From the sequence record NZ_CP096708.1: DNA of 64,000 nucleotides, one strand, 5' to 3'. Origin of the DNA: a plasmid. The notes beneath the pieces are model-generated. The model was given only the letters and a program-made list of their open reading frames with translations. It had not been told where the DNA came from and did not search any database. Positions 4,881 to 63,136 of the stretch are shown piece after piece. A program made the position numbers and the translations under genes. How positions within the stretch are numbered: position 1 is the stretch's first letter; every line of letters begins with the position of its first letter.

Positions 4881-4948
4881 GGTTATAATATTTTCATGGA
4901 ATCGGATAGGCTGATTCCTATTAGAGCCGTGAGGCTTAAGGTGAAGAA
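4881..4948 (+). promoter_or_regulatory. Conserved promoter-leader-RBS module (full form)
   Basis: -10 box TTATAAT at 4883-4889. Hairpin 1 GGAATC-GGATAGGCT-GATTCC at 4898-4918. Hairpin 2 AGCC-GTGA-GGCT at 4925-4936. Shine-Dalgarno TAAGGTG at 4937-4943. ATG at 4949. Confidence 0.7.
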
Positions 4949-5392
4949 ATGAAAAATGATTTAGTTTTAAGTTATACCCTTTCTAATGGTGAAACTCATT
5001 TTTATGGCTATTTTATACATCGCAATGATGGTTCGCTTACATCTGGTTTCAATCAAACACCAGAGGAAGTTATTGAAGGGCTTAAACAACGTTATGGCGA
5101 GCGATTAGTCTCAACATCACTAGATGATGAAATTGAATATTTCAAAAAGGAGTTAGAGTTTTTAATTCCAAAGCAAATTGACGAAGAAGAATATAAAAGT
5201 AAATTCAATATATTACCTCCTGCAAAAATGTATAAGAGTGAGTCGGTAGAAGCATTCATGTGTACAGAGCCGTTAGCTATCAATCTGTATACCCATTTCG
5301 TTAATTTTCCTAAGCATAAAAAGGCTTTCCAGATCGTAGCGTTTGGAAATACGCCAATAACAGACGTTATCAAACAAGCAGAACATTTTTGA
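4949..5392 (+). CDS. Hypothetical protein (147 aa)
   Basis: The ORF sits directly behind a conserved leader module. Confidence 0.55.
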   Translation: MKNDLVLSYTLSNGETHFYGYFIHRNDGSLTSGFNQTPEEVIEGLKQRYGERLVSTSLDDEIEYFKKELEFLIPKQIDEEEYKSKFNILPPAKMYKSESVEAFMCTEPLAINLYTHFVNFPKHKKAFQIVAFGNTPITDVIKQAEHF

Positions 5393-5399
5393 TTTTCAT

Positions 5400-5454
5400 G
5401 GGGTAGAAATACCCCAATTTTAATTAATGAGCTGAAAAGCTTAAGGTGAAATTT
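5400..5454 (+). promoter_or_regulatory. Conserved leader-RBS module (variant)
   Basis: Hairpin GGGGTA-GAAA-TACCCC at 5400-5415. Hairpin 2 AGCT-GAAA-AGCT at 5430-5441. Shine-Dalgarno AAGGTG at 5443-5448. ATG at 5455. Confidence 0.65.
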
Positions 5455-6507
5455 ATGAAAAATATTACTGATTCAATTATTCAAAAACTAGGTCTAATTA
5501 CGTTTGAAGAGTTAGAAAAAGGCGATTTAGAAATATTTACTAACTTTGATACGTGTAAGGTAATTATCAAGGAAATTAAAAAAAATTGGAGTGAAGAAAA
5601 AGTATTTAAAATTTTGTTCGATGCTCTTAACGGCGACTTTATCTATTGTAACTCACAACAAGAATTACAAGCATTTATTAAGTACTTCAAGACTACTAAT
5701 AAACAATCGAATAAAGCTGAGCAACATTTCTTTGTACAGCCAACTAAACCCTACATGGTTGATCCCAAAAAACGCTATTTCATTGCCAATCTAGCAGTTC
5801 CCAATCTTCAAATTGAAAACTTAAAGGATGTTGATAATTTAACGAGTCGAGAAGTGGAATTTATAAATAAAGTTAAAGATGGTTTTGCAAATCCTGACAT
5901 TGACAAGTCTTTCCTAAACTTTTTAGAGGACTATAAAAAAATAGTTGCAGCAGAGTACCAGAGGAAAACAAACCAAAATAAAAAAGCAATGGATGAAATT
6001 GAATGGTTCATTGGCAATGGCTTTTTTATTCCTGAGCAAATTCTCAAGTACGAAGATAAAAACAAAATCCTCGATATCATTGTGTACTGCAATATTGCAG
6101 CTTTGAATTGGTTGTTGATCCCAAGTAACTTGTCTAAATATGAAAATATTCATCAAAACGACTTGTTAGCTTTAACCAAATATTTGTACCTGATGCAAAC
6201 AATATTGGCAGAAACTGAAATCACAAAATTAAGAAGTGGCGATGTAGAGGAATATTGTTTTAGGAAAAAAGGATATTATTTTTTAGATGAATTAAGTAGT
6301 GAAGAGATTGATCATTATTGTGAGGGAGAAGATTATGAAGTCTGGATTGTAAAATCTAAAGATAATGAAATCGAACCTGAAACCGCAGAAAAAGCCTATG
6401 ATGCATATGGAAATAGTTACGCATACGACTTAAAAGAACTAAAGGATACTTTGCAAAAATTTATATCCTTAAATGAAGTGCAGTTTTTACTTTACAAAAA
6501 GATTTAA
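5455..6507 (+). CDS. Hypothetical protein (about 350 aa)
   Basis: A long ORF. Start taken as the ATG at 5455 behind the Shine-Dalgarno; the track uses a GTG at 5446. Confidence 0.55.
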   Translation: MKNITDSIIQKLGLITFEELEKGDLEIFTNFDTCKVIIKEIKKNWSEEKVFKILFDALNGDFIYCNSQQELQAFIKYFKTTNKQSNKAEQHFFVQPTKPYMVDPKKRYFIANLAVPNLQIENLKDVDNLTSREVEFINKVKDGFANPDIDKSFLNFLEDYKKIVAAEYQRKTNQNKKAMDEIEWFIGNGFFIPEQILKYEDKNKILDIIVYCNIAALNWLLIPSNLSKYENIHQNDLLALTKYLYLMQTILAETEITKLRSGDVEEYCFRKKGYYFLDELSSEEIDHYCEGEDYEVWIVKSKDNEIEPETAEKAYDAYGNSYAYDLKELKDTLQKFISLNEVQFLLYKKI

Positions 6508-6568
6508 GACGCATAAAGGTCACATCATTTGATTGGTGTGACCACAATTATTTCAGGGTAGAGCACGA

Positions 6569-6766
6569 ATGAAAAATGAATATTCTGATTCAGAACTAGA
6601 AAAACTGTGGTGTGAATTAAGCAAAATAGCTATTGCGGTAAATGAAAATTTTATTGAACAAGACTTCATATTTTTTGAAGCAGGTACAGACATAATTGAA
6701 ATTTGGATTTGGTTCGATCAGTTACATTCAAAAGGGGTTAAATGGCTGCAAGATAATATTGATTAG
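6569..6766 (+). CDS. Hypothetical small acidic protein (65 aa)
   Basis: A short ORF followed by a palindrome plus T-run terminator. Confidence 0.35.
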   Translation: MKNEYSDSELEKLWCELSKIAIAVNENFIEQDFIFFEAGTDIIEIWIWFDQLHSKGVKWLQDNID

Positions 6767-6804
6767 CAAGATCTAGTTGCGGATCCGCAACTATTTTTTA
6801 AATT

Positions 6805-6828
6805 AATATTTTTTTCTTTATCTTTCTT
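6805..6828 (+). terminator. Intrinsic terminator formed by palindrome copy GTTGCGGATCCGCAAC plus T-run
   Basis: A perfect 16-bp palindrome at 6805-6820 followed by TATTTTTT. Confidence 0.5.
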
Positions 6829-6831
6829 TAT

Positions 6832-7018
6832 GGGCGTTCCCTTCGGGACAGGCTTGTTGGCTTCGCTCGAACTCAAACCTAAAACGTTGGTCACAGTGTT
6901 TAAAATCTAGTTTCATGCATGGCATGAACCTGATTTTAATACACCGCAAAACCAACGTTTTTTACGCTTTGATTTCGCCCCTTCGGGCAACATCCCTAAC
7001 GCTATAATCAAATACCTG
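6832..7018. repeat. Repeat element A, copy 2
   Basis: Near-identical to 3755-3944. Confidence 0.8.
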
Positions 7019-7066: not shown

Positions 7067-7247
7067 GAGTCGCAACTCTGCGAGATTGCTCTGTAAAGGG
7101 CGTGTAGTGCCAAATAAAGGCAGTTGCGTTGCTGCGGTCAGCTCGACTTAATCACAGATTAAGTCGGCTTCGCTTGCAACCTGCAACGGTAATCAAGGAG
7201 GGAAGATACTTGAATTTCATCAGTTCGCAACGTAGACACGTTGCTCT
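7067..7247 (+). repeat. Repeat element C, copy 2
   Basis: Near-identical to 4259-4439. Here it is not preceded by block B. Confidence 0.75.
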
Positions 7248-7356
7248 AGATTTTATGTCAAAAATTCACAAATATAAGTCTCTGTTTTTACTGGTTTTAT
7301 TTATTTATAAAATGCCTATAATATTGTTTTTTATGCTTTTTTTATTTATCTGATGT

Positions 7357-7425
7357 GATATAATTAGAATTAAGAAATTGGATAGGCTAATTTCTTAATA
7401 GAGCTGAAAAGCTTAAGGTGAAAAT
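7357..7425 (+). promoter_or_regulatory. Conserved promoter-leader-RBS module (full form)
   Basis: -10 box GATATAAT at 7357-7364. Hairpin 1 GAAATT-GGATAGGCT-AATTTC at 7374-7394, with both arms changed in a compensatory way relative to other copies. Hairpin 2 AGCT-GAAA-AGCT at 7402-7413. Shine-Dalgarno AAGGTG. ATG at 7426. Confidence 0.7.
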
Positions 7426-7737
7426 ATGAATACTTATACAAAAATTGCAATCAATTACTTCAAAAATTTGCTATCCGTTAGCGAACAAAATAACGGATTG
7501 AAATATTCAGAATCAATGCAAAACCCGAAGCACATAGCCTGTAATGAAACTACTTTTTTCATAACTCAAATTGAAAATTCAATTGTAATTATCGACTGTG
7601 ATCATGAAAGTTTTTTGCCGTATTCGATTGATGCCTGTTTAGATTTTACGTCTAACAGCGTTAAAGAAGCAGCAGAGAAAGCGATTGATTATTATTGTCA
7701 AATTCGTGATCACTATTTTGAATTAATTAATCAATAA
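7426..7737 (+). CDS. Hypothetical protein (103 aa)
   Basis: The ORF sits behind a leader module. Confidence 0.5.
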   Translation: MNTYTKIAINYFKNLLSVSEQNNGLKYSESMQNPKHIACNETTFFITQIENSIVIIDCDHESFLPYSIDACLDFTSNSVKEAAEKAIDYYCQIRDHYFELINQ

Positions 7738-7746: not shown

Positions 7747-7769
7747 GAGCCGACAGGCTTAAGGAGTTA
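7747..7769 (+). promoter_or_regulatory. Conserved leader-RBS module (hairpin 2 only)
   Basis: AGCC-GACA-GGCT at 7747-7758. AAGGAG at 7761-7766. ATG at 7770. Confidence 0.6.
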
Positions 7770-8270
7770 ATGATGAAAAACTGGTTCAGTACAGCAGTAA
7801 AAAGTCTTGATGATTTAAAAAAAGAATATCGTAAATTATGCTTTAAGCATCATCCCGATATGGGTGGAACAACTGAAGATATGCAGGCCATAAATTCAGA
7901 ATACGAGCAACTTTTAAAAAAATTAATTAATCAAAAAGCTGATAGTAACTATTCGGATAAATCAACATTTTCAAACCGAGAGGAAGAGATAGAAGCAGAA
8001 ATTAAGCTAAGAGAAGTTTTAGAAAAAATTGAAATTTTAGAGGGCTTAGAAATCGAGAAAATTGGATTATGGTTATATGTTTCTGGCAACACAAAAGCTC
8101 ATAAAGACAAGTTAAAAGAAGCAGGATTAAAATGGAACCATACGAGGAAACTATGGGTATATGTAGGTACAGAAGCAAGAGGACGTGGTACAAAAGATAT
8201 GGATGAGCTAAGAGCAAAATATGGAAATGAAAAATTTAAAACTCGATCAAAAATAAAGAAAATTGCTTAA
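7770..8270 (+). CDS. J-domain (DnaJ-like) protein
   Basis: HPD tripeptide in the context YRKLCFKHHPDMGG, typical of J domains. Confidence 0.65.
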   Translation: MMKNWFSTAVKSLDDLKKEYRKLCFKHHPDMGGTTEDMQAINSEYEQLLKKLINQKADSNYSDKSTFSNREEEIEAEIKLREVLEKIEILEGLEIEKIGLWLYVSGNTKAHKDKLKEAGLKWNHTRKLWVYVGTEARGRGTKDMDELRAKYGNEKFKTRSKIKKIA

Positions 8271-8342: not shown

Positions 8343-8414
8343 GTTATAATTTAATCAGGAAATCGGATAGGCTGATTTCTTATTTATGAGCTGAAAAGCT
8401 TAAGGAGTTTTAAA
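8343..8414 (+). promoter_or_regulatory. Conserved promoter-leader-RBS module (full form)
   Basis: -10 box TTATAAT at 8344-8350. Hairpin 1 GAAATC-GGATAGGCT-GATTTC at 8359-8379. Hairpin 2 AGCT-GAAA-AGCT at 8389-8400. AAGGAG at 8402-8407. ATG at 8415. Confidence 0.7.
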
Positions 8415-8723
8415 ATGTCACTTGGTACTTCAATGACTGAAATAAAAGCATTATTTCAAAAATTCACTAACTCAACTCTTAATGATGAAGAAAAAATTTA
8501 TCTGAATACCACAGATAAAAAGGTTATCTTTACAGCATCAAAAATCATTACTCTTCAAATTTCAAAAAATCGTATTGCTTATACAGAGTACGATATTTCA
8601 AATAAAGAAAAAATGAGAATTGTTGCAAAAGAGACTTTAAGTTTTAGTACATCACTAAGCTTTTTAGTGAAATTTCATTTTGCCAAAGTACATGCTGAAA
8701 CAATAATCCAAGCAGCACAATAA
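8415..8723 (+). CDS. Hypothetical protein (102 aa)
   Basis: The ORF sits behind a leader module. Confidence 0.5.
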   Translation: MSLGTSMTEIKALFQKFTNSTLNDEEKIYLNTTDKKVIFTASKIITLQISKNRIAYTEYDISNKEKMRIVAKETLSFSTSLSFLVKFHFAKVHAETIIQAAQ

Positions 8724-9239: not shown

Positions 9240-9300
9240 TAAATGGGCGGGACAACCCGCAAAAAAAAGCGTCACACACCACGCACCTATCGGTGCTTCG
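9240..9300 (-). promoter_or_regulatory. Candidate oriT: relaxase-binding hairpin plus nic region, with the transferred strand inferred to be the minus strand
   Basis: Read on the minus strand, the sequence is GCACCGATAGGTGC, a 5-bp-stem hairpin (plus-strand coordinates 9282-9295), followed by GTGGTGTGTGAC. This closely parallels the R388 MOBF oriT IR2-nic sequence GCACCGAAAGGTGCGTATTGTCT/AT as recalled. AT-rich repeats TATACGTAAAACGTATA and ATAGCGT-type motifs lie at 9350-9575. The site is immediately upstream of the RHH accessory, traD and traI genes. Confidence 0.5.
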
Positions 9301-9696
9301 GCTCAAGCCTATGCTGTACAAGGGTTATAGGCTAAAAAAGAGTAAAAGATCTGTGTATACGTAAAACGTATAATTAAATAGCTATGTATATGAAACGTAG
9401 GAGATTATAGCGTATACAAACTATGGTTTAGATGTTTACCAAAATAACTAAAAACTATAAGTAACTGATTGATAATAATAATTTAATCATGTAAACAGAT
9501 AATGCAACTCTAAATATTATTTTTATGATCTTAAGTATTTGTAAAATAAAGAGAATATAGCGTTTACGCATATCTTCTTATGAAGCTCACATTTTTTTCT
9601 CAGTTTAATCTTTGCTAATATTAAAAAATCAATCAAAGTGATACAAAAAATATTATTTATTTTTTGTTTTTTATCTCAAAAAAAGAGGTCAAATTT

Positions 9697-17249: not shown

Positions 17250-17291
17250 AGGTACTTTATTCGTGAGAAGTAACTAGGTATTCAGGCTATC

Positions 17292-17373
17292 TAAGAGTGG
17301 CCATCATAGATAAAAACGTCTATGGCCGTGGCAAACTTAGCTTCAGTATAGATAAATATGTCTATGCTCGATT
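17292..17373 (+). repeat. Repeat element B, partial copy (sites 2 and 3 only)
   Basis: Matches 4094-4188 and includes ATAGATAAAAACGTCTAT and ATAGATAAATATGTCTAT. Confidence 0.7.
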
Positions 17374-19505: not shown

Positions 19506-20063
19506 CTATACTTTATTAACCAGAGAAATGAAGTTTTTTTTGATTGTACAGAGATTAATATCTTTATTAGACGGTTGATAGGATTTAAGATATTCAGGTA
19601 TAAGCAACTGTTGAAAGTCAAAACAAGTAATGGTTCCTTTTCTAAATTCCATAATTTCTTTAACTTTTAGTTTAACCGTTTCATTTCTATCAATAATTTC
19701 TTTTAATGTTAAATAGTCGATTTCTGAAATCTCATTAAATAAAAATGTAGTGGATAAGAAATTTAAGTTTTGTTGATTTAAAAAACGTGAATTTCTTTTA
19801 GATAAATACTTATATAAGATTCTTATACTAAGAATCATTATTGATGAAAAAGATATAGCAACTAAAAAATTAATTCTTAAGTTGAAACTAAAAATCCAAC
19901 AAAGATAAAATCCATAAAAACAGAATAGAAATTGTGACAATATAAATGCATGAATAATGACATTTGTTATAAAGTCAAAATTAGAAAAGGCAGATTGATA
20001 CTGTTCCTTAGAAATAGGTTTGTAATTAGATATTCTGATATCTAACATTTCAATAGTTTGCAT
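19506..20063 (-). CDS. Membrane protein, paralog B of the 21560-22165 ORF
   Basis: Shares an N-terminal region and a C-terminal motif KVKEIMEFRKGTITCFDF with the paralog, which has KVKEILKNRDGIITGFDF. The central part is hydrophobic. Confidence 0.5.
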   Translation of the reverse strand: MQTIEMLDIRISNYKPISKEQYQSAFSNFDFITNVIIHAFILSQFLFCFYGFYLCWIFSFNLRINFLVAISFSSIMILSIRILYKYLSKRNSRFLNQQNLNFLSTTFLFNEISEIDYLTLKEIIDRNETVKLKVKEIMEFRKGTITCFDFQQLLIPEYLKSYQPSNKDINLCTIKKNFISLVNKV

Positions 20064-20092
20064 ATTAACACCTTAAGCTTAGCAGCTCGTAT

Positions 20093-21588: not shown

Positions 21589-22165
21589 TGAACAGGTCAG
21601 TGAGGATTAAGTCTCTTTTTTTGTTAGACTCATTAATTGACTCTTGTTCTTTTAATAGACTTAATAATTTTATAACATTAAGATTTATAAAATCGAAGCC
21701 TGTAATAATTCCATCTCTATTTTTTAGAATTTCTTTTACTTTATTTTTAAATTCTGGAATAGTGTTAGAAACATCGCTAATCATTTGATAACTATCTGAA
21801 TCAATTTCATCAAAACTATCAATTGAACATAAACTTATCAAATTATTTTTATTAAGTAAATTATCATTAACTGAAAACATTTTTCTTGTTGAGAAAGCTG
21901 ATATTATAAAAAATGTTAGTGATGTTAGAAATATCATTTTCCCATAATTGAAAACAGGTACTTCTGGAATTAACAAATCCATTAATGATATAAATGCTAT
22001 AACAAAAAAAATAATCATTAAAATTAATAATAACCTTATTATTATGGTATAGCGTTCAGACTTACGGTAAATCGGAATATATTGTTTCTGTGTAAGAGGT
22101 TTATATTCTTTGATTTCCTTAATACACAAATCAATAACTTCTTGTGTCTTGACAATTTCATTCAT
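21560..22165 (-). CDS. Membrane protein, paralog A
   Basis: Start taken as the ATG at 22163-22165 (MNEIVKTQ...), which is preceded by a minus-strand leader module. The track start at 22255 would read through the palindrome. Confidence 0.5.
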   Translation of the reverse strand: MNEIVKTQEVIDLCIKEIKEYKPLTQKQYIPIYRKSERYTIIIRLLLILMIIFFVIAFISLMDLLIPEVPVFNYGKMIFLTSLTFFIISAFSTRKMFSVNDNLLNKNNLISLCSIDSFDEIDSDSYQMISDVSNTIPEFKNKVKEILKNRDGIITGFDFINLNVIKLLSLLKEQESINESNKKRDLILTDLFNDNGDKNND

Positions 22166-22190
22166 ATATACACCATAAGCCTTTCGGCTC
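22166..22190 (-). promoter_or_regulatory. Conserved leader-RBS module (hairpin 2 only), minus strand
   Basis: The reverse complement reads AGCC-GAAA-GGCT TATGGTG tatat ATG. Confidence 0.55.
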
Positions 22191-28571: not shown

Positions 28572-28573
28572 TA

Positions 28574-33108: not shown

Positions 33109-33137
33109 AGCTGAAAAGCTTAAGGTGTGAATTTTAT
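33109..33137 (+). promoter_or_regulatory. Conserved leader-RBS module (hairpin 2 only)
   Basis: AGCT-GAAA-AGCT at 33109-33120. AAGGTG at 33122-33127. ATG at 33138. Confidence 0.6.
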
Positions 33138-33635
33138 ATGCGTGAAATTAAACGATTCCGAGCTACACGAGTCATTCTTGTGACCATGTTTGCCTTTCTA
33201 TTACTCAGCCTTGCATTGTTCATCAGTACTAAATGGTACATCTATACGATCAATATGACGCAAAGTTTAAATGGCAGTATTTATGTCATCAAAAAAGGAG
33301 CACCAGTACAAAAAGGTGATTTGGTCGGTTTTAAATGGAATGGAAATATTAAATATCCTAAAGATGCCATTTTTGTAAAAGTTGTTTCAGGTGTAGAAAA
33401 CGATCACATCAAAGTTAATGGCCGTAGTGTATTTATCAATGATAAATACATTGGAAAAGCAAAAGAGTATAGCTCTGATGGGAAAATCAAATTAGATGTA
33501 ATTGAACCACACAAGATTGAGAAAGACGAAATATTCGTGAGCACACCACATAAGGACAGCTTGGATAGTCGTTATGCATTGGTAGGAACTATTAAAAAAG
33601 ACATTATATTGGGGAAAGCTTATGAAATTTTCTAA
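33138..33635 (+). CDS. Signal-peptidase-I-like conjugative peptidase (TraF/TrhF-type)
   Basis: N-terminal transmembrane segment followed by an S26-like fold. Positioned between traC and traW, as in H-type/ICE F-like systems. Confidence 0.55.
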   Translation: MREIKRFRATRVILVTMFAFLLLSLALFISTKWYIYTINMTQSLNGSIYVIKKGAPVQKGDLVGFKWNGNIKYPKDAIFVKVVSGVENDHIKVNGRSVFINDKYIGKAKEYSSDGKIKLDVIEPHKIEKDEIFVSTPHKDSLDSRYALVGTIKKDIILGKAYEIF

Positions 33636-39508: not shown

Positions 39509-39533
39509 AGCCGATAGGCTTATGGTGTTAAAA
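39509..39533 (+). promoter_or_regulatory. Conserved leader-RBS module (hairpin 2 only)
   Basis: AGCC-GATA-GGCT TATGGTG ttaaaa ATG. The 33-nt stretch is identical to 57150-57178. Confidence 0.6.
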
Positions 39534-40961
39534 ATGAAACTAAGAACAATATGTTTAGCTTTATTCTGTATATCTATCTCTACTGTTGATGCTGCTTCAG
39601 GTACTTCAATGAATGAAGTATTTGACCAGATCAATGCTACAGGAAATGTTACGACCCCTACCGCAATTCAAGGGCAGACGATGAACTACACCACAGGCGG
39701 TAGTTTATTTATGCGTATGCCAAATACGACCTATAACCTAGCTGCAATTACACCCCCATCGGCGAATGCGGGATGCGGCGGGATTGATCTATATATGGGG
39801 GGATTCAGCTATGTAAATAAAGAGCAATTTGTAGCAATGTTAAAGAATATTGGTTCAAATGCTCTTGGATATGGATTTAAGTTAGCACTTCAAAATCTTT
39901 GTCCGACTTGCGATAACGTAATGCAAGCATTACAAGCTGTATCCCAACAGGTGAACAGACTCAATATTGACTCATGTGAAGCTGCAAAAGGGATTGTTAA
40001 TGCAGCATTACCTACTAGCGTTCAACGTGGCCGTGAACAATCATCAATGAGTTGGGGAAATATTAAAAATATCTTCAGCGATATGAGTGAAGGCTGGGGC
40101 AAGGTTAAAGGTAATGACCAAGCTACAAATAATACTTTGGAACAAATCAAAGGATCTGATCCAGTAATTAAAGATCAAATTCCAGAAGGGAATTTAACAT
40201 GGAGAGCGTTGTCAAAAATTTCTGCATTACCCAATGAACAAAAATATCTTGTGATGGCAATGATAGGAACAATTGTAATTGACACTAAAAACGGTGCACC
40301 AAAGATTGTTGCCTATCCAAGACGAATTGATAATATCTCAACATTAATCGGGACTAATACAGCAACAAATAAACAGTTTCCTGTTTGGCGTTGTGTTGAC
40401 GGTACTGCTGAAGATGAATGTCGTGAGTTGGTTCAAGATAATTTAACAACTAATGAGACTTTCTATACCCTTGTTGACAAAAAAATGCGTTTATTGGCCG
40501 ATGCAATTACCCAAAGACGACCAATAGGGGATCAGAATAGTATTATTCAATTTATTAACTTAACTGACATACCAATCTATAAAATTATTGCTCTTAATAC
40601 ACGTTATGGTGGTGATAGCACAGCAGCAATGGCAGCAATGGAGCAGTATAAAGAATTAATTGCAGCTAAATACGCTTTAGCGTATTTCGAAATCACAAGT
40701 AAGATGGTTGAAGCTGCATTAAGTAATATTGTTGCAGGAACTTCGGATCCGATGACATCCCAAGAAATTATTAAAATTCGTGAAACATTAGATAAAACAA
40801 GATCAGATTTAAATCAAAGTGTTCAAACGGCATATTCAAGATCAAATGTATCATGGAATATTGCACAAGAAGTGCAGCACATGGAGAGAACACTCCATTC
40901 AAACTTAACACCAGCATTACGACAATCAATTGTCTTTGCTAACACCTTGAATAAAAAATAA
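39534..40961 (+). CDS. traH: TraH-like
   Basis: Signal peptide. Size and order match. Confidence 0.7.
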   Translation: MKLRTICLALFCISISTVDAASGTSMNEVFDQINATGNVTTPTAIQGQTMNYTTGGSLFMRMPNTTYNLAAITPPSANAGCGGIDLYMGGFSYVNKEQFVAMLKNIGSNALGYGFKLALQNLCPTCDNVMQALQAVSQQVNRLNIDSCEAAKGIVNAALPTSVQRGREQSSMSWGNIKNIFSDMSEGWGKVKGNDQATNNTLEQIKGSDPVIKDQIPEGNLTWRALSKISALPNEQKYLVMAMIGTIVIDTKNGAPKIVAYPRRIDNISTLIGTNTATNKQFPVWRCVDGTAEDECRELVQDNLTTNETFYTLVDKKMRLLADAITQRRPIGDQNSIIQFINLTDIPIYKIIALNTRYGGDSTAAMAAMEQYKELIAAKYALAYFEITSKMVEAALSNIVAGTSDPMTSQEIIKIRETLDKTRSDLNQSVQTAYSRSNVSWNIAQEVQHMERTLHSNLTPALRQSIVFANTLNKK

Positions 40962-45906: not shown

Positions 45907-45993
45907 TTTACTTGATCCTCGATGTAATCAACTAAGTATTCATGCAGATTTACGACATGTACTGTGCTTGCCATAATCTACATTTATCCAATG

Positions 45994-53413: not shown

Positions 53414-53496
53414 AGTTTTTTTAAAAAAATAATATACAGAATAGTCTTTTTAATTGATAATGATATGACTAAGTAATACAATTAAGTCTCAAAATG

Positions 53497-53520
53497 AGCC
53501 TAGCGGCTTAAGGAGTCAAA
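53497..53520 (+). promoter_or_regulatory. Conserved leader-RBS module (hairpin 2 only)
   Basis: AGCC-TAGC-GGCT at 53497-53508. AAGGAG at 53510-53515. ATG at 53521. Confidence 0.6.
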
Positions 53521-53898
53521 ATGGTAAAAACCAAGCAATTTATTGCATTTCCAGACAACGTTATTAATGTTTCAAGTAGCTTTGATTTTGAGGCTCTTAT
53601 TTGTGATTTGCCAGAGCAAGTCATAAATGACCTTGATAACGCTATTTTAAAACTTCAATCATTTGAAACGTCATTATATGCAGCCTATAGAGTTGCAAAT
53701 TTCAATTTAAAATCTTTTGTTGATCTTAAACTGCTTAATTTCTATCAAGAAATTGAGATTGAGGATGTGTTTTTATTTATTAATAAAGATGGTCTTTATG
53801 CTCAACTTTCTGCACTAGTCAATAACCAACATAATTTTTGGTTTGTACAGCTAAAAATGTATAAGAACGGGAGTCTGACTGATGAAAATAGCAATTAG
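53521..53898 (+). CDS. Hypothetical protein (125 aa)
   Basis: The ORF sits behind a leader module. Confidence 0.5.
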   Translation: MVKTKQFIAFPDNVINVSSSFDFEALICDLPEQVINDLDNAILKLQSFETSLYAAYRVANFNLKSFVDLKLLNFYQEIEIEDVFLFINKDGLYAQLSALVNNQHNFWFVQLKMYKNGSLTDENSN

Positions 53899-55294: not shown

Positions 55295-55421
55295 GTTAGA
55301 TAAAGCTAACTGGTGAGCCGCATGGCTTATGGTGTGTATATGAAAAGCCAAATTAATGAGAATACCTACATTTTGATTGTAGAACTCTCAAATATTTTAA
55401 AAATTAAACAAGGATTTAATT

Positions 55422-55987: not shown

Positions 55988-56011
55988 AGCTGAAAGGCTT
56001 ATGGAGTGTTT
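55988..56011 (+). promoter_or_regulatory. Conserved leader-RBS module (hairpin 2 only)
   Basis: AGCT-GAAA-GGCT TATGGAG, with the ATG at 56012. Confidence 0.55.
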
Positions 56012-56305
56012 ATGAAAATCAAATCTGCACTAATTAAACTATTTGTATTAGTTTCAATAATATCACTTGCGGGATGTACACCAATGCGTCCTGAAGACGG
56101 ATATTTTTTATCAAAAGCCTATAATATATTTTTTTCAATAGGTTACATAATATTACTTGGTGTATTTATAAAAAGTGTGAGAGGAGCAGCACTTGGTATT
56201 GGAATTATCTTATTAATATCAGCGTATATAGCATGGGTATTAACGACGGCTATGTATCCTCCGATGAATTTAGTCATCACTCTACCGTACAAATGGTGGG
56301 TATAA
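56012..56305 (+). CDS. Small membrane protein
   Basis: Lipoprotein-like LAGC and two transmembrane helices. Confidence 0.4.
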   Translation: MKIKSALIKLFVLVSIISLAGCTPMRPEDGYFLSKAYNIFFSIGYIILLGVFIKSVRGAALGIGIILLISAYIAWVLTTAMYPPMNLVITLPYKWWV

Positions 56306-57010: not shown

Positions 57011-57150
57011 TCAAAAAACCTCTAGTTTTATAATTTATTATAAATCATTTTTTAAACTGTTCTGTAGAAAATACTATATTTATTTTGTACCTATTCGAAA
57101 AAAGTATATAATATCATCGTGAAATAATATGTCTTAAACATACTTTTTAG

Positions 57151-57175
57151 AGCCGATAGGCTTATGGTGTTAAAA
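57151..57175 (+). promoter_or_regulatory. Conserved leader-RBS module (hairpin 2 only)
   Basis: AGCC-GATA-GGCT TATGGTG ttaaaa ATG. Confidence 0.6.
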
Positions 57176-57907
57176 ATGAAAAATACACAAGGTAAAGAAC
57201 TAAACTTAATTCTTGGCGACCGTTATGCATCAGTACAAGAAGTATTGGATAGTAAAACTAATTTGAATGGTACTGTAGCGTCTTGGAATCTCAAAGCTTT
57301 GGACTCTATTCATGTAATAGATTCAATAAATGATGATCAAAAACGTAATGAAATTGCTTTTAAAAGAAAGCGTAAAAACAATGTAATAACATGGGCACTG
57401 ATTGGCGGAGTATTGGATGCTTCATCTGGAGAAGACAGTATTTTAGATGGTGTTTTATTAGGTGGATTATTCGGCTATGCATCCAGTGGCAGTGTAGAAA
57501 AACCTGAAGCGAGCATTCTCTTAACTTTTACTAATGGCGATAAATTAGGACTTTATGTTAACCAAAACGAACTTCTAAAAATTATGGAAGTACAACAAGA
57601 GGACAATTTAATTGATGGAAAAAAGATTGGTAATTTAACAGTAGAACAGCAGCAGATCGTTATTGAATCTCGTAGAAATGATGAATTTTTCAATCAACTG
57701 CTTGCAGCAGTTATTATGTTAATCGGTATAGGTCTTTTTAACTTTTTGTTCGGAGAGGACGTGAAGCAAGAAGTTACACATGGCGCATTACTGTTATACA
57801 TAGCAAATATAGGCGGAATGCTGTGTTTTATATATGTAGTCTTATATGCAACAGGTGTGATAGGAAATAAAACTGATGAAGAGTTTAAGAAACCTAACGA
57901 AAAGTAA
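57176..57907 (+). CDS. Hypothetical protein with a C-terminal membrane segment
   Basis: Start taken at MKNTQ behind the leader module. Confidence 0.45.
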   Translation: MKNTQGKELNLILGDRYASVQEVLDSKTNLNGTVASWNLKALDSIHVIDSINDDQKRNEIAFKRKRKNNVITWALIGGVLDASSGEDSILDGVLLGGLFGYASSGSVEKPEASILLTFTNGDKLGLYVNQNELLKIMEVQQEDNLIDGKKIGNLTVEQQQIVIESRRNDEFFNQLLAAVIMLIGIGLFNFLFGEDVKQEVTHGALLLYIANIGGMLCFIYVVLYATGVIGNKTDEEFKKPNEK

Positions 57908-57938: not shown

Positions 57939-57964
57939 AGCTGAAAAGCTTAAGGAGCTTAAAT
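57939..57964 (+). promoter_or_regulatory. Conserved leader-RBS module (hairpin 2 only)
   Basis: AGCT-GAAA-AGCT at 57939-57950. AAGGAG at 57952-57957. ATG at 57965. Confidence 0.6.
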
Positions 57965-58540
57965 ATGAAAACCAGTGAAGACAGAGTGACTAATTTTTTT
58001 CTGATTTTATACGGGGTTGCTGAAACTTTTATATATAATGTTGTCTTTATAACACTAATGATTATTGGTTATTTCTTGTCAAATAAACTTGGTTATGACC
58101 ATAAAGGTTTTCTTCTGTTTTTCTTATGTTTTTTAAGTGTTCAGTCTATTGGTAAATCACTGTATTTATTTGGATTGTTGTTTTATTCTAAGAGTTTGGA
58201 TCAATTTCCCTTAAAAGAATTAGGTATCTTTATTTCAAATTGTATTATTACAATTCTCACTATTTTTTTCACTTTCTATGTTTTTGATTTAAGCCTTTCT
58301 GATAAAAATACTTTTGGTACGTTTAGTACATTGTGCTTATTTATCATGATAGATTTTATGCTTACACCTTATTCTTTTAATATTTTTAGAAATTATAATT
58401 TTATTAACCAACCTGATCCAATGATTGAAAATCCCATTGTTGTTGATAAAAAAAGCAAAGGCATATTTAATTTTATCTTTAGTTTTTCCTCGCTGACTTT
58501 GGGTATGATAGTAGTTGAGTATCTTAGTAATCAAATTTAA
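57965..58540 (+). CDS. Polytopic membrane protein (191 aa)
   Basis: Several hydrophobic helices. Confidence 0.4.
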   Translation: MKTSEDRVTNFFLILYGVAETFIYNVVFITLMIIGYFLSNKLGYDHKGFLLFFLCFLSVQSIGKSLYLFGLLFYSKSLDQFPLKELGIFISNCIITILTIFFTFYVFDLSLSDKNTFGTFSTLCLFIMIDFMLTPYSFNIFRNYNFINQPDPMIENPIVVDKKSKGIFNFIFSFSSLTLGMIVVEYLSNQI

Positions 58541-58572
58541 TTTTCTATTTTAGATTTACTATTTTTTAATGA

Positions 58573-58597
58573 ACTGAAAGGTTTAAGGAGTTAAATA
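58573..58597 (+). promoter_or_regulatory. Conserved leader-RBS module (hairpin 2 only)
   Basis: AACT-GAAA-GGTT at 58573-58584. AAGGAG at 58585-58590. ATG at 58598. Confidence 0.55.
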
Positions 58598-58918
58598 ATG
58601 TTTGACACAACAAACGATATAAAAGTGGAAGCCCAAAATGCATTTGGAGCCTATGCTCTCATAGCATCTTCACCAAACCGAGGGCAACTTTACACTTTTA
58701 AGGCGATTCAATACTCTGTACATAGGATAGATAAAAGTAAAACTTATGAATTAAGTATATTTACAGGCATGATAGTTTCAATCAAAAGTAACGAATCAGA
58801 TCCAACGTTGCTTGAGGTTCGCTATATAAATCCTAGTAATAAGTATTGCGAGATATTTGTAACTGATATGTCGATATCTGAGCTTGAAAGTTTAATCAAT
58901 TCAAATAAATCTACGTAA
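58598..58918 (+). CDS. Hypothetical protein (106 aa)
   Basis: The ORF sits behind a leader module. Confidence 0.45.
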   Translation: MFDTTNDIKVEAQNAFGAYALIASSPNRGQLYTFKAIQYSVHRIDKSKTYELSIFTGMIVSIKSNESDPTLLEVRYINPSNKYCEIFVTDMSISELESLINSNKST

Positions 58919-59013: not shown

Positions 59014-59042
59014 AGCTGAAAAGCTTAAGGTGTTTTGAAAAT
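59014..59042 (+). promoter_or_regulatory. Conserved leader-RBS module (hairpin 2 only)
   Basis: AGCT-GAAA-AGCT at 59014-59025. AAGGTG at 59027-59032. ATG at 59043. Confidence 0.6.
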
Positions 59043-59132
59043 ATGAAAATTAGATATTTAAAATTGATCGTTCTCTTTTTATTTGTTCAGGCTTTAATTG
59101 CATGCCATCAAATAGCAGGAGGTGTAATTTGA
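59043..59132 (+). CDS. Possible 29-aa leader peptide ORF overlapping the methyltransferase start
   Basis: The ATG follows the module. The ORF contains AGGAGGTG four nt before an in-frame TTG (59129) of the methyltransferase reading frame. Confidence 0.25.
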   Translation: MKIRYLKLIVLFLFVQALIACHQIAGGVI

Positions 59133-60633: not shown

Positions 60634-60657
60634 AGCCTAACGGCTTAAGGTGAAGAA
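60634..60657 (+). promoter_or_regulatory. Conserved leader-RBS module (hairpin 2 only)
   Basis: AGCC-TAAC-GGCT at 60634-60645. AAGGTG at 60647-60652. ATG at 60658. Confidence 0.6.
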
Positions 60658-61434
60658 ATGAAGAAATTTTATCAAATCAGTTTTAGTGGTGGACGTACTT
60701 CAGCATATTTAACCTATTACTTACTACGAAATTTTAGCCATCTTTATAACTTTATTGTGACTTTCGCAAACACAGGCATCGAGCATGAAAAAACTCTAGA
60801 ATTTGTGGACAATTGTGATAAATATTTTAACTTTAACACTGTTTGGTTAGAGCCAGTTATTAATCCACAAAAAAGAGTAGGCACAACACATAAAGTAGTA
60901 AGTTTTGAGACGGCAACGCGCAGTACAGACCTATTTGAGCAAATGATTGAAAAATACGGGATACCGAACAAAGTATATAAGCATTGCACACGTGAATTAA
61001 AAATACGTCCAATGGATTCATATATTCGAAGTCTTGGCTTAAAGCCGAAAGAAATACCAACTGCTATTGGCATACGTATTGATGAATCTCGGCGCTGTAC
61101 GAAGAAAGCAGAAGAGTATAATTTCAGATATCCATTGGTTACTGAACACCCAGTTGATAAGCAATTTATCTTAGATTGGTGGTCAAACCAAGAGTTTGAC
61201 TTAGATCTGGATGAGTGGGATGGTAATTGTAATATGTGTTTTGAAAAATCATTTCCTAAATTATTAAAGCAACTAGAAACAAATCCTAAAGCGCTAGATT
61301 TTCATCTGAGAATGGAAAGAATCCACGGCCAAACGAACAATCAACTCGGAATGCCAGATCGAGTTTTTTTCCGTCAAAATTACTCTGCTCTTGATATTTT
61401 AAAAATGAGTAGACAAGCTCTAGCAGCAGCTTAG
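60658..61434 (+). CDS. PAPS-reductase-family (PP-loop) protein
   Basis: PP-loop SFSGGRTS near the N-terminus. Positioned immediately after the C5 methyltransferase. Confidence 0.65.
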   Translation: MKKFYQISFSGGRTSAYLTYYLLRNFSHLYNFIVTFANTGIEHEKTLEFVDNCDKYFNFNTVWLEPVINPQKRVGTTHKVVSFETATRSTDLFEQMIEKYGIPNKVYKHCTRELKIRPMDSYIRSLGLKPKEIPTAIGIRIDESRRCTKKAEEYNFRYPLVTEHPVDKQFILDWWSNQEFDLDLDEWDGNCNMCFEKSFPKLLKQLETNPKALDFHLRMERIHGQTNNQLGMPDRVFFRQNYSALDILKMSRQALAAA

Positions 61435-61500
61435 CTACGTCCTTATTTCCCTTCAAATCCGAATGGTGAATATTCCCTATTCACTAAGTGTTTTAAATTA

Positions 61501-61700
61501 CAGCTGCCATAGATAGATGCATCTATGTAATCAGGAACTAGGGCTTTGTAAGAGTGGCCATCATAGATAAAAACGTCTATGGCCGTGGCAAACTTAGCTT
61601 CAGTATAGATAAATATGTCTATGCTCGATTTACCTGGAAACATAGTCAAGTCTATCTATGCGCTTATGCTTTCTAGTGCGGATCCGCAACCTGGAGTCGC
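61501..61700 (+). repeat. Repeat element B, copy 4
   Basis: Identical to 4063-4252. Confidence 0.8.
61687..61700. repeat. Palindrome family copy (end of repeat B copy 4)
   Basis: TGCGGATCCGCAAC. Confidence 0.9.
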
Positions 61701-61878
61701 AACTCTGCGAGATTGCTCTGTAAAGGCCGTGTAGTGCCAAATAAAGGCAGTTGCGTTGCTGCGGTCAGCTCGACTTAATCACAGATTAAGTCGGCTTCGC
61801 TTGCAACCTGCAACGGTAATCAAGGAGGGAAGATACTTGAATTTCATCAGTTCGCAACGTAGACACGTTGCTCTGTTT
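61701..61878 (+). repeat. Repeat element C, copy 4
   Basis: Identical to 4253-4439 apart from one substitution. Confidence 0.75.
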
Positions 61879-61881
61879 TTT
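61854..61881 (+). terminator. Intrinsic terminator at the 3' end of element C
   Basis: GCAACGT-AGAC-ACGTTGC followed by TCTGTTTTTT. Confidence 0.6.
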
Positions 61882-62464
61882 AATCATCGAGTTTAGATAA
61901 AGGTTGAAATGCCTTAAAAGAATATTTTTTAAATACAATATTTGTGTCCTGGTATCGGATCTTTCTCAGGTCATTAATTTTATCTACTATATTTGAATAT
62001 TTTTCATACAGTTCTTTAATATCATTAGAATTGGCTCTATCTGCAAACATATTTTCAGCTTGTTTCTCTAACTTACTAATAGTTTGGTCTAAGCGTTGAA
62101 CTACTTGAATTGCTTCAGGAGCAGCTATTTCAGTTTTATTCAGGGTGAGATCAGATAGGATCTTATTATAATAATTTGATTTTTGCCTATCTTCATATTT
62201 AATGATGTAATCTCTACGATCAAATATGTCACAAGTAGGGTTTAAACGTTTTATTGATCGTTTAGCCTTGACGACATCATCTGCATTCCAGTAGCCCATA
62301 TCCCCATCTTGGGCGACTATAAACATATCTTCATTTAGAAAAACCAATACAACAGTTTTTAAAGTTAAATTTTCTCTTTCATACCGTACAAAGTAGATTT
62401 TACTGGCATCTTTTATATGTGATGAGCTTTCTTTGCTCAGCCTGGTATGGCGATTATTGGTCAT
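61880..62464 (-). CDS. Hypothetical protein (194 aa)
   Basis: A clean minus-strand ORF. Confidence 0.4.
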   Translation of the reverse strand: MTNNRHTRLSKESSSHIKDASKIYFVRYERENLTLKTVVLVFLNEDMFIVAQDGDMGYWNADDVVKAKRSIKRLNPTCDIFDRRDYIIKYEDRQKSNYYNKILSDLTLNKTEIAAPEAIQVVQRLDQTISKLEKQAENMFADRANSNDIKELYEKYSNIVDKINDLRKIRYQDTNIVFKKYSFKAFQPLSKLDD

Positions 62465-62547
62465 AGATATCCCCTCAAGATCTTAAATAAATATACCACT
62501 AATTTAAATAAAATAACAATTAATTTGTTTTTTTTATGTGTTTTTGA

Positions 62548-62614
62548 GTTATAATTAAACAGTGAAATCGGATAGGCTGATTTCTATTAGAGCCGAAAGG
62601 CTTATGGTGATTAT
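62548..62614 (+). promoter_or_regulatory. Conserved promoter-leader-RBS module (full form)
   Basis: -10 box TTATAAT at 62549-62555. Hairpin 1 GAAATC-GGATAGGCT-GATTTC at 62564-62584. Hairpin 2 AGCC-GAAA-GGCT at 62591-62602. TATGGTG. ATG at 62615. Confidence 0.7.
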
Positions 62615-63103
62615 ATGTATAATGTATTGATTATAGAGCAATTAAAACTATGTAAAATGGATAAGCCATCTTTTTGTGCTTGCCAGGTTGGTGAGATCTA
62701 TATTTGTGATCCAGTGATTGAATTTAATAATGGTTTAGAAGTACTTAAAACAAACATGTATGACTGTAAAGATTTTGATATTTACAGCATTGGTACTAAG
62801 GATCAGTTTAAAAAATTTATTTTTACTTTAGAAAAATTAGCGCAGATTCTGCATGGTTGCCCATTGCTAGATGGACTTAAAGCAACAATGAATTTTCAGG
62901 GCGCTTTTATTGTAGATTGTTTCTCATTCTTTCAAGCTAATTTAGATATTTTATTCAAACCTAGAATTCTAAGTGAGTTCACATCTAGTGAAGATGAAAT
63001 ATTAAATTTCCAGTTAATATACTTCAAACTTCTAGAAGTATTTAGAAAAGCTGGAGCAAATGGATTTATTCAATTCAATACCTATAAAACATTAAATAAA
63101 TAA
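62615..63103 (+). CDS. Hypothetical protein (162 aa)
   Basis: The ORF sits behind a full leader module. Confidence 0.45.
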   Translation: MYNVLIIEQLKLCKMDKPSFCACQVGEIYICDPVIEFNNGLEVLKTNMYDCKDFDIYSIGTKDQFKKFIFTLEKLAQILHGCPLLDGLKATMNFQGAFIVDCFSFFQANLDILFKPRILSEFTSSEDEILNFQLIYFKLLEVFRKAGANGFIQFNTYKTLNK

Positions 63104-63112
63104 TCTAAATAG

Positions 63113-63136
63113 AGCTGAAAAGCTTAAGGTGGAAAA
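63113..63136 (+). promoter_or_regulatory. Conserved leader-RBS module (hairpin 2 only)
   Basis: AGCT-GAAA-AGCT at 63113-63124. AAGGTG at 63126-63131. ATG at 63137. Confidence 0.6.

Follow-up and report, generated by a model that had tools for sequence, protein, structure and literature searches.

Sequence record NZ_CP096708.1 is a plasmid, and the stretch of it analysed here, hereafter called the window, is 64,000 nucleotides (nt) long. In this window, a short module is repeated 19 times in front of open reading frames (ORFs). The module consists of a small hairpin (hairpin 2) fused to a Shine-Dalgarno (SD) sequence, and in its full form it is preceded by a -10 box and a further hairpin (hairpin 1). 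The short form, which is hairpin 2 with the SD alone, is found at internal cistrons and at genes with other promoters. The existence of the module, its copy number and distribution, the pairing in the RNA sense, the conservation of the -10 box and the insertions and deletions flanked by modules are direct observations. With regard to its role, we tentatively propose that the module may be a portable expression cassette of one Acinetobacter plasmid family (MOBF/MPF-F), which would act in cis on the mRNA.

The window belongs to a p1BJAB07104-type plasmid of Acinetobacter baumannii and matches NC_021727.1 (70,170 bp) at 99.9-100% identity from position 1701 on. Plasmid p1BJAB07104 is conjugative, with a relaxase of the MOBF family and transfer genes of the MPF-F type. 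About 6 kb of the circle, holding parA, parB and a string of small ORFs, lie outside the window and were added from the record; coordinates above 64000 refer to this part.

Occurrence and copy number

The pattern AGCYNNNNRGCTTAWGGWG, with at most one mismatch, has 18 matches in the window, against 0.06 expected from shuffled sequences. Adding the AACT/GGTT copy at 58572 gives 19 copies, 17 on the plus strand and two on the minus strand. In addition, a covariance model was built from 61 unique (non-identical) copies from several plasmids and run with its filters off. On the window it returns exactly these 19 copies, at 26.2-41.8 bits, and everything else scores at most 11.4 bits, so that the scores are bimodal. 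Counted over the whole plasmid, there are about 28 copies, against 84 annotated genes, which is about one third. The added segment of about 6 kb holds a fifth full form, just outside the window and before parA, as well as three more copies in which GGAGG replaces TAAGG; one copy is decayed.

The module had already been described in a first-pass annotation of the window, and most of that description is borne out. All 17 plus-strand copies were recovered, at 4925, 5430, 7402, 7748, 8389, 33109, 39509, 53497, 55316, 55988, 57151, 57939, 58572, 59014, 60634, 62591 and 63113. On the minus strand a single copy had been claimed and two were found, at 22171-22189 and at 20069-20087, the latter having been missed. 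The four full forms (4925, 7402, 8389 and 62591) are present with the exact GGATAGGCT loop, the TATAAT box and the hairpin 1 stem variants as claimed. The SD variants TAAGGTG, TAAGGAG and TATGGTG were seen again and are joined by a fourth, TATGGAG, and besides the stems AGCT/AGCT, AGCC/GGCT and AACT/GGTT there is AGCT...GGCT, with a U·G closing pair. The spacing from SD to ATG, given as 5-10 nt, measures 5-11 nt in the window copies. GACA had been counted among the GNRA loops, which is wrong; 12 of the 19 window loops are GNRA. The copies mostly precede a gene, as was stated, except for those at 55316 and 59014, which open mere 31- and 29-codon ORFs overlapping the start of the next gene. Recurrence in related plasmids had been named as a check, and the motif does recur there.

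Covariation and the pairing molecule

Both hairpins are predicted by RNAalifold unaided. The closing pair of hairpin 2 was assessed in 63 unique copies, which had been gathered without demanding complementarity at this pair. It is U-A in 31 copies, C-G in 26, U·G in three and A-U in three, and it is unpaired in none (chi-square p = 8e-24). The other three Watson-Crick pairs are nearly invariant, A-U, G-C and C-G being found in 61, 60 and 60 of 61 copies, with one compensatory change each (the single copies AACT/GGTT and AGTC/GACT). A caveat is one copy of the A. indicus plasmid pBDT201-3 (AGCC GAGA GGCC), which has A/C at the outermost position. The nucleotide at -1 is G in 56 of the 61 copies and extends the stem by a G·U pair. 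A stem longer than this was considered and rejected, as further positions pair in just 32 and 22 of the 61 copies. The loop is variable, with 17 different tetraloops; it is of the GNRA type in 38 of 61 unique copies (34 of them GAAA) and of other types in 23, such as GAAG, GATA, TCAC and TAGC. A GNRA loop is thus preferred and not required.

In hairpin 1, three of the six pairs have changed on both sides, giving the stems GAAATC/GATTTC, GGAATC/GATTCC, GAAATT/AATTTC and GAAGTT/AACTTC. Besides the six-pair stem there are a G·U and a G-C pair, and the loop, which contains AUAGG, is invariant: GGATAGGCT is identical in all 21 aligned unique full forms and in one further copy (L116), that is, in all W-type lineages examined.

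Among the wobbles of both hairpins, nine of nine are G·U on the sense strand and none is of the opposite-strand kind (p = 0.004). The restriction of wobbles to the sense strand, the fixed sense orientation of the module and the strand-asymmetric GAAA loop point to a structure of the mRNA, as against an operator in duplex DNA or a fold of the transferred template strand. The compensatory changes had earlier been ascribed to selection on RNA or single-stranded DNA structure. Selection for pairing is upheld, in the RNA sense, and the wobbles argue against the single-stranded DNA fold.

Promoter, leader and Shine-Dalgarno sequence

Across 21 unique, diverged full forms, the TATAAT box hardly varies and usually has G or TG upstream, and the -35 region is not conserved. 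The promoter appears to be of the ordinary sigma-70 kind, in most cases with an extended -10. From the box to the start of hairpin 1 there are 8-10 nt (8-9 nt in the four full forms of the window), so that the transcript should begin 0-3 nt before hairpin 1, which would then have the geometry of a 5'-terminal stem-loop.

The SD, UA(A/U)GG(U/A)G, adjoins hairpin 2 with zero gap and is complementary to the last seven nucleotides of 16S rRNA. Folding of 25 copies in their native context predicts hairpin 2 in 23 of them (P > 0.74), with energies of -1.3 to -6.3 kcal/mol. Most copies are promoter-less. The short forms lie in AU-rich spacers (87% A+T), often right after a separate GC-rich hairpin or a TTGCGGATCCGCAA palindrome. 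A scan for terminators listed no module; hairpin 2 has no U-tract and is directly followed by the SD on its 3' side. Terminator-like hairpins, where found, are separate upstream elements.

Genes carrying the module and the leading region

The module is concentrated in a co-oriented block that runs from 53.0 kb to 64 kb and on through parAB and the small ORFs to 8.7 kb, all on the plus strand and towards the origin of transfer (oriT). It is found on 19 of 37 genes in this block and on 4 of 47 elsewhere (odds ratio 11, Fisher p = 1.6e-5), in agreement with the concentration first noted at 4.9-8.4 kb and 53.5-63.1 kb. The four genes outside the block encode the S26 signal peptidase, TraH and two minus-strand ORFans, and the outlying copies reported before the minus-strand ORF (22166), the signal peptidase gene (33109) and traH (39509) are among them. 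The downstream products are mostly ORFans; orphan C5 and N6 DNA methyltransferases, a PAPS-reductase-like protein, a J-domain protein and ParA are also present. A Pfam and PHROG domain search of the module-linked and conserved ORFans found no RNA-binding or regulator domain, and most genes had no match. Because parA and traH also use the module, it is not strictly a marker of establishment genes.

A candidate oriT is located at about 9240-9340, upstream of the gene in the TrwA position, the coupling protein gene and the MobF relaxase gene. On the minus strand, GCACCGATAGGTGC-GTGGTGTGT forms an inverted repeat (GCACC GATA GGTGC), followed by the nic-like stretch GTGGTGTGTGACGC, and AGCCTAT...ATAGGCT repeats are close by. 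This combination of inverted repeat and nic region presumably resembles the nic regions of R388 and F. The candidate places the nicked strand on the minus strand, which makes the minus strand the template of the plus-strand leading genes, as had been supposed earlier from their co-orientation. The minus strand would then be transferred, and coordinates below about 9260 would be the first to enter the recipient. In leading regions generally, genes are arranged with the transferred strand as template (PMC11541004).

Two further features of the plasmid were observed. Within the MobF relaxase gene, a 60-nt tandem repeat (13296-13560) differs in copy number between the window and NC_021727.1. Window positions 1-2860 hold an AAA-ATPase fragment, blaOXA-23 (825-1655, minus strand) and ISAba1 (about 1681-2860). 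This is a portion of a Tn2006/Tn2008-type element inserted in the co-oriented block of small ORFs; p1BJAB07104 has ISAba1 alone at this position.

Distribution among related plasmids

The full form is found in 237 PLSDB plasmids, usually 9-10 times per plasmid; all but one of them (236) come from Acinetobacter, and 234 are conjugative. These plasmids make up the RepAci6 family (pACICU2, pAb-G7-2 and relatives). Plasmid pAb-G7-2 has more than 20 copies, with the extra stem alleles AGCA/TGCT and AGTC/GACT. Metagenomic contigs hold further diverged lineages with the same architecture. Five contigs (L038, L040, L052, L060 and L061) of the metagenome-assembled genome CAZNMO01, labelled 'uncultured Clostridiaceae bacterium', represent a diverged relative of the window plasmid, with parAB, the N6 methyltransferase gene, the J-domain gene and 14 modules. 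They are probably from an Acinetobacter-type plasmid that was mis-binned because of its low GC content.

A more distant version is found in pBDT201-3, whose TraH is 53% identical. There, 14 or more leading-region genes are preceded by it, among them ardA and a second antirestriction gene. This version has a conserved AACCTGAGTTATATATAAT promoter, a different first hairpin and the same core TTTTTAG-AGCC GAAA GGCT-TA. As this core is kept where the rest of the leader has been replaced, hairpin 2 is the deeply conserved element. At eight or more leading-region genes of this plasmid (positions 3595-18765), a third small hairpin downstream of the AGCC GAAA GGCT hairpin carries the SD GGAG in its tetraloop, and it covaries as well (UGCA GGAG UGCA vs CGUA GGAG UACG). 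Such presentation or sequestration of the SD in a loop suggests that translation is regulated there. Minor forms such as GGCC GAGA GGCC-AGGAG and similar ones also occur.

Outside these plasmids, a search of one genome per bacterial species gave single chance matches, apart from the mis-binned plasmid, and viral contigs and 50,697 phage genomes gave nothing beyond single chance matches. The whole window has no Rfam match at the gathering score, and the module-rich regions give two chance-level matches at E <= 1. No description of the module was found in the literature on its sequence, on RepAci6 leading regions and on p1AB5075 transcription start sites, consistent with the earlier impression that the module had not been described.

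Probable recombination at the module

The copy before traH (39508-39539) and the one before an unrelated 243-aa ORFan (57150-57181) are 100% identical over 32 nt, spanning hairpin 2, SD, spacer and ATGAAA, which suggests recent gene conversion between modules. Insertions and deletions are also bounded by copies. Relative to pAb-G7-2, NZ_CP050912.1 has a two-gene insert (PAPS reductase and an ORFan) between two repeats of about 380 bp that end in a full-form module, and the homology to the other repeat copy ends between SD and ATG. Between traF and traH, where the window has one module, pAb-G7-2 has an additional ORF with a module on either side. At the 60658 gene, DNA homology between the window and RepAci6 plasmids starts inside its module, in the 3' arm (window 60643). 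Recombination is the probable mechanism of these module-bounded events.

Possible role and alternative explanations

In the account tentatively favoured here, transcription would start from a sigma-70 promoter, 0-3 nt ahead of hairpin 1, which would then protect the primary 5' end. The AU-rich linker between the hairpins is a possible cleavage site, and hairpin 2 would shield the cistron 5' ends left by cleavage in the linker. Hairpin 2, the long SD and the AUG 5-11 nt further on would form a standard translation-initiation unit, and the two hairpins together would give a uniform start to many small ORFans for establishment and maintenance. Gene conversion would keep the copies alike, with portable homology for the gain and loss of gene cassettes as a by-product.

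Several points weigh against this account. The start of transcription, the processing, the stabilisation and the roles in translation are all deduced from sequence. In silico, mutation of the 5' arm or deletion of hairpin 2 leaves the predicted accessibility of the SD the same (0.40 vs 0.39; p = 0.67 and 0.96), and a function of hairpin 2 as an insulator that keeps the SD unpaired is therefore not supported. TAAGGTG, the commonest SD, is weaker than the strongest possible one. Copies with a promoter and hairpin 2 only would have about 7 unpaired nt before the hairpin, more than classical 5'-end protection would allow. In at least eight cases, orthologous genes of different plasmids differ in their stem allele; since both stem alleles are present in every plasmid and the hairpin is only 12 nt long, gene conversion could switch both arms together, and these switches are therefore neither independent double mutations nor independent proof of selection for pairing. 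Finally, the near-invariant pairs of hairpin 2 and the fixed loop of hairpin 1 exceed the needs of a purely structural role, which hints at specific recognition.

Other structural functions were considered as well. A pseudoknot or switch, in which GGCU of the hairpin 1 loop would pair with the 5' arm of hairpin 2, is not supported, as the loop is fixed and the arm is AGCC, AGCU or AGCA, with a G·A mismatch in two pAb-G7-2 copies. A mini-ORF (ATG AGC CGA AAG GCT TAA) was rejected, being allowed by only some combinations of flank and stem and having no SD upstream, and a pause hairpin does not agree with the variable distance from hairpin 2 to AUG, which is not fixed at 11-12 nt. That hairpin 2 stacks coaxially on the SD/anti-SD helix is kept only as a hypothesis. 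In the window lineage, the first nucleotide of the SD pairs with the 3'-terminal A of 16S rRNA, which would favour stacking, whereas the spacing from hairpin 2 to SD in pBDT201-3 is 0, 1 or 10 nt.

A serious, though less likely, alternative is that the hairpins are operators of a post-transcriptional regulon, recognised in trans by an RNA-binding protein or a small RNA of host or plasmid. About 25 establishment and maintenance genes would then be repressed or activated together, for instance in a burst on entry followed by shut-off, with CsrA as one candidate. Such recognition would fit the conservation of the hairpin 2 stem, of G at -1 and of the hairpin 1 loop beyond structural need, as well as the identity of the hairpin 2 core in pBDT201-3 despite the divergence of TraH. 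The confinement of the motif to the plasmid family, with none in the chromosomes, phages and other genera searched, fits a dedicated partner, and the in-silico accessibility test gave no purely structural benefit. However, concerted evolution can mimic sequence constraint, and the hairpin 2 loop is variable. Moreover, no homologue of CsrA, Hfq, ProQ, FinO or RfaH was found by tblastn on three plasmids (no credible match; best E = 0.008, within an exported SNase), the plasmid proteins scanned have no RNA-binding domain, and the search for a plasmid-encoded antisense RNA found no independent sequence complementary to the hairpin 1 loop or to hairpin 2 with the SD.

With respect to CsrA/RsmA-type proteins, which the first-pass annotation had put forward, some copies have GGA in the loop of the upstream hairpin together with a GGA-containing SD, and in pBDT201-3 the SD GGAG lies in the loop of the covarying third hairpin. 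This assignment sits poorly with most window copies: the SD is GGUG, with no GGA, in 13 of 19 and GGAG in 6 of 19, only 4 of 19 have GGA in a hairpin 1 loop (GGAUAGGCU), and hairpin 2, including its loop, never contains GGA. A translational regulator other than CsrA is possible. The stronger statement, that the hairpins are cis operators for a specific RNA-binding factor and form the first RNA-level global regulon described for a conjugative plasmid, is unlikely. If true, about 25 genes for establishment, anti-restriction and partition would have their translation or stability set by the factor, which would read the hairpin 2 stem and the hairpin 1 loop, and the regulon would be a post-transcriptional counterpart of the KorB/ArdK networks in the RepAci6 plasmids that spread OXA-23.

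It is improbable that the module is an ordinary promoter and ribosome-binding site only, in which the hairpins hitch-hike through duplication and gene conversion and the cassette persists by promoting shuffling. The module-flanked insertions and deletions, the 32-nt identity between unrelated genes, the shuffling of two main stem alleles among orthologous sites and the lack of a predicted effect on SD accessibility would all be expected. This explanation does not account for the six or more stem versions that are all paired, with none of 63 closing pairs unpaired, or for wobbles in the RNA-sense direction only. In addition, the hairpin 1 stems covary independently of hairpin 2, and the hairpin 2 core outlives replacement of the remaining leader in pBDT201-3.

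Operators in double-stranded DNA for a dimeric plasmid repressor of the KorB, KorA or ArdK type, with no role of RNA, are a very improbable explanation of the inverted repeats. AGCY-N4-RGCT is palindromic, conjugative plasmids normally have global regulons at the DNA level that use repeated operators, as in CUP/ArdK (PMC6289460), and the dispersed palindrome TTGCGGATCCGCAA indicates that such a system is probably present on this plasmid. However, in hairpin 1 the arms covary and the 'spacer' is invariant, the reverse of a dimer operator. Mixed sites are AGCT..GGCT (G·U) only and never AGCC..AGCT, nine to none over both hairpins. The element is always sense-oriented, lies between the -10 box and the ATG or within operons and is fused to the SD, and the GAAA loop is strongly strand-asymmetric.

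It is scarcely credible that the hairpins fold in the transferred single strand for Frpo- or ssi-like expression or priming before complementary-strand synthesis. In favour are the co-oriented genes, whose template is the putatively transferred minus strand, and the use of Frpo by leading-region genes of other plasmids (PMC11541004). Against it, the stems measure no more than 4-8 bp, and the -10 box is outside any hairpin, with no -35/-10 inside a stem. On the template strand, the wobbles would turn into A·C mismatches. Modules are also found before parA, traH and genes on the minus strand, and the long conserved hairpin repeats B and C nearby (described below) are much better candidates for single-stranded DNA elements.

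Comparison with known systems

In function and architecture, the nearest known systems are the PeSLs of T4-type phages and the CUP repeats of IncN plasmids. In T4-type phages, promoter-early stem-loop (PeSL) cassettes have been described (Arbiol et al. 2010, PMC2839356; Comeau et al. 2014, PMC4122927). Like them, the module combines a sigma-70-type promoter, a stem-loop and an SD/ATG at the 3' end, and the ORFans behind it belong to a hyperplastic region of a mobile element that is co-oriented and expressed early. Gene insertions and deletions are bounded by copies in both (for the module in two cases, the NZ_CP050912.1 insert and the traF-traH ORF of pAb-G7-2), and one PeSL subclass has its stem-loop between -10 and SD. 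In contrast, PeSL stem-loops are GC-rich terminators (GGGG...CCCC) with no reported covariation, whereas the module hairpins are 4-8 bp long, lack a U-tract, lie inside the 5' untranslated region (UTR) and show compensatory changes. The module also has a promoter-less short form in operons and a plasmid instead of a phage as host. Sequence similarity between the module and phage PeSLs was not found, there being no phage matches.

The CUP repeats of the IncN plasmid pKM101 belong to the ArdK regulon (Delver and Belogurov 1997, as cited in PMC6289460). They share with the module a repeated, promoter-bearing upstream sequence before several leading-region genes (ardA, ardB and others for CUP) and, according to that citation, give co-ordinated expression of establishment genes. 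As described there, CUP acts at the DNA level through a 13-bp ArdK operator, in contrast to the RNA-sense hairpins downstream of the promoter in the module. An ArdK-like repressor was not identified on the window plasmid, and most module copies are promoter-less.

The single-stranded DNA promoters of leading regions, Frpo and ssi (Masai and Arai 1997; PMC11541004), resemble the module in their leading-region location, in the orientation of the genes on the transferred strand and in presumed early expression. In Frpo, the transferred strand folds into a long, imperfect hairpin (about 100-300 nt) whose stem holds -35 and -10, whereas the module has a duplex promoter outside the hairpins and no conserved -35, and its pairing is on the opposite, RNA-sense strand. 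Of the earlier suggestion of a shared early-expression cassette analogous to Frpo, the promoter-leader-ribosome-binding-site module on leading-side genes is retained and the analogy is not supported, also because of the short stems of the module and the A·C mismatches that its wobbles would form on the transferred template strand.

Stem-loops of the type found in the ompA 5' UTR reportedly act as 5'-terminal stabilisers (Emory, Bouvet and Belasco, 1992). Hairpin 1, at about 0-3 nt from the expected 5' end, has a geometry that would block 5'-end-dependent attack by RNase E. It differs in its invariant loop, which stabilisers do not need; moreover, hairpin 2 is internal, and the start site is deduced from the position of the -10 box. 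The module belongs to neither the PeSLs nor CUP, and it is not an Frpo, an intrinsic terminator or a member of an Rfam family. Repeated regulatory cassettes of mobile elements are known; what is new here is that an mRNA hairpin joined directly to the SD shows covariation and recurs 20-28 times on each plasmid.

Among the main carriers of carbapenem (OXA-23) and amikacin (aphA6) resistance in A. baumannii are RepAci6 and related plasmids. In them, one cassette of 20-80 nt, with the predicted role set out above, stands at the start of about one third of the genes, including those first into the recipient. It provides a handle for mapping early expression and finding a possible common regulator, and for antisense or CRISPR interference (CRISPRi) with plasmid establishment. 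As it marks true start codons and tiny ORFs, it is also useful for annotation. With its many copies, its covariation and its lack of an Rfam match, it is a candidate for a new family of cis-regulatory RNAs, and it provides a plasmid example of the cassette-shuffling logic earlier described for T4-type phages.

Individual copies in the window

The copies are on the plus strand unless stated otherwise. The first full form (4884..4951; 28.6 bits) has the -10 box TATAAT at 4884-4889, hairpin 1 (GGAATC/GATTCC) at 4898-4918 with the loop GGATAGGCT at 4904-4912, hairpin 2 (AGCC GTGA GGCT) at 4925-4936, the SD TAAGGTG at 4937-4943 and the ATG of a 147-aa ORFan at 4949. In the second (7359..7428; 37.7 bits), the -10 box (TGaTATAAT) is at 7359-7364, hairpin 1 (GAAATT/AATTTC) at 7374-7394 with its loop at 7380-7388 and hairpin 2 (AGCT GAAA AGCT) at 7402-7413, followed by TAAGGTG and the ATG of a 103-aa ORF at 7426. 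The third (8345..8417; 41.6 bits) consists of the -10 box (TGtTATAAT) at 8345-8350, hairpin 1 (GAAATC/GATTTC) at 8359-8379 with its loop at 8365-8373, hairpin 2 (AGCT GAAA AGCT) at 8389-8400 and TAAGGAG; its ATG at 8415 opens a 102-aa gene, which is the final plus-strand gene ahead of oriT and has 6 homologues only. The fourth (62550..62617; 35.7 bits) has the -10 box at 62550-62555, hairpin 1 (GAAATC/GATTTC) at 62564-62584 with its loop at 62570-62578, hairpin 2 (AGCC GAAA GGCT) at 62591-62602, TATGGTG and the ATG of a 162-aa ORF at 62615.

Two short forms lie among the full forms near the start of the window. The copy at 5430..5457 (AGCT GAAA AGCT TAAGGTG; 41.8 bits), with the GC hairpin ggggtagaaatacccc upstream, precedes the ATG of a 350-aa ORF at 5455, and the copy at 7748..7772 (AGCC GACA GGCT TAAGGAG; 33.9 bits) precedes that of the 166-aa J-domain protein at 7770. 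Both minus-strand copies are short forms with the palindrome GTTGCGGATCCGCAAC upstream. One is at 20061..20087 (AGCT GCTA AGCT TAAGGTG; ATG 20063, 185 aa; 31.5 bits) and the other at 22163..22189 (AGCC GAAA GGCT TATGGTG; ATG 22165, 201 aa; 36.1 bits). The short form of the S26 conjugative signal peptidase gene is at 33109..33140 (AGCT GAAA AGCT TAAGGTG; ATG 33138; 34.8 bits), and its orthologue in pAb-G7-2 is AGCC TGAC GGCT. That of traH is at 39509..39536 (AGCC GATA GGCT TATGGTG; ATG 39534; 28.5 bits).

The remaining copies lie in the 53-63 kb part. The copy at 53454..53523 (27.9 bits) has hairpin 2 only, with a promoter-like TTGATA-17-TACAAT at 53454-53482, AGCC TAGC GGCT TAAGGAG at 53497-53515 and the ATG of a 125-aa ORF at 53521. 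The short form at 55316..55342 (AGCC GCAT GGCT TATGGTG; ATG 55340; 26.2 bits) opens the 31-codon ORF (55340-55435), which overlaps the start of the 55422 gene, and the one at 59014..59045 (AGCT GAAA AGCT TAAGGTG; ATG 59043; 35.6 bits) opens the 29-codon ORF (59043-59132), which overlaps the start of the C5 DNA methyltransferase gene (59102) and resembles a lipoprotein signal peptide. These two could be leader or coupling ORFs, or remnants of replaced cassettes left by turnover. The short form at 55988..56014 (AGCT GAAA GGCT TATGGAG; ATG 56012, 97 aa; 32.8 bits) has the U·G closing pair. Upstream of the one at 57151..57178 (AGCC GATA GGCT TATGGTG; ATG 57176, 243 aa; 33.8 bits) are a TATAAT box and another hairpin. 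Next are the short forms at 57939..57967 (AGCT GAAA AGCT TAAGGAG; ATG 57965, 191 aa; 34.9 bits) and at 58572..58600 (AACT GAAA GGTT TAAGGAG; ATG 58598, 106 aa; 34.7 bits), the latter with its second pair changed. The PAPS-reductase-like gene (ATG 60658, 258 aa) is preceded by the short form at 60634..60660 (AGCC TAAC GGCT TAAGGTG; 34.6 bits) and the N6 DNA methyltransferase gene (ATG 63137) by that at 63113..63139 (AGCT GAAA AGCT TAAGGTG; 36.8 bits), whose orthologue in the metagenomic relative is AGCC GTAA GGCT.

Other repeats of the plasmid

The palindrome (G)TTGCGGATCCGCAA(C) occurs 16 times in the window, 18 times in the plasmid and 13 times in pAb-G7-2, both in intergenic regions and inside tra, relaxase and zeta genes. 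In the window it is found at 4239, 6777, 13268, 20094, 22196, 23829, 25040, 29792, 33657, 38854, 46170, 50327, 53399, 56371, 61677 and 63939. Several copies end up 5-10 nt away from hairpin 2, on its upstream side, and the scan for terminators also scores them as bidirectional, terminator-like hairpins. The set looks like dispersed sites of the parS or KorB-operator type, possibly for the 419-aa ParB. Plasmid pBDT201-3, whose ParB is just 25% identical, has 16 copies of the variant TTGCGATATCGCAA.

Three repeat units of about 190 bp were also observed. Unit C (3755-3941 and 6832-7017) has a hairpin of about 37 bp flanked by GCCCGAAGGGGC-type hairpins, with a DNA folding z of -7.9, and it is conserved with compensatory changes in pAb-G7-2 and pBDT201-3. 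Unit B is found at 4256-4444, 7067-7255 and 61694-61882, and inverted at 45780-45914. In the window as in pAb-G7-2, the 7402-type module has a pair of C and B upstream of it. Units B and C are candidate ssi/Frpo-like single-strand elements of the leading region, with no -35/-10 recognised in the stem. Unit A (4062-4252, 45993-46183 and 61501-61690, and partially 17285-17373) contains four ATAGA-N6-9-TCTAT inverted repeats, with a ParB-type palindrome at its end, and resembles an iteron or centromere-like array.

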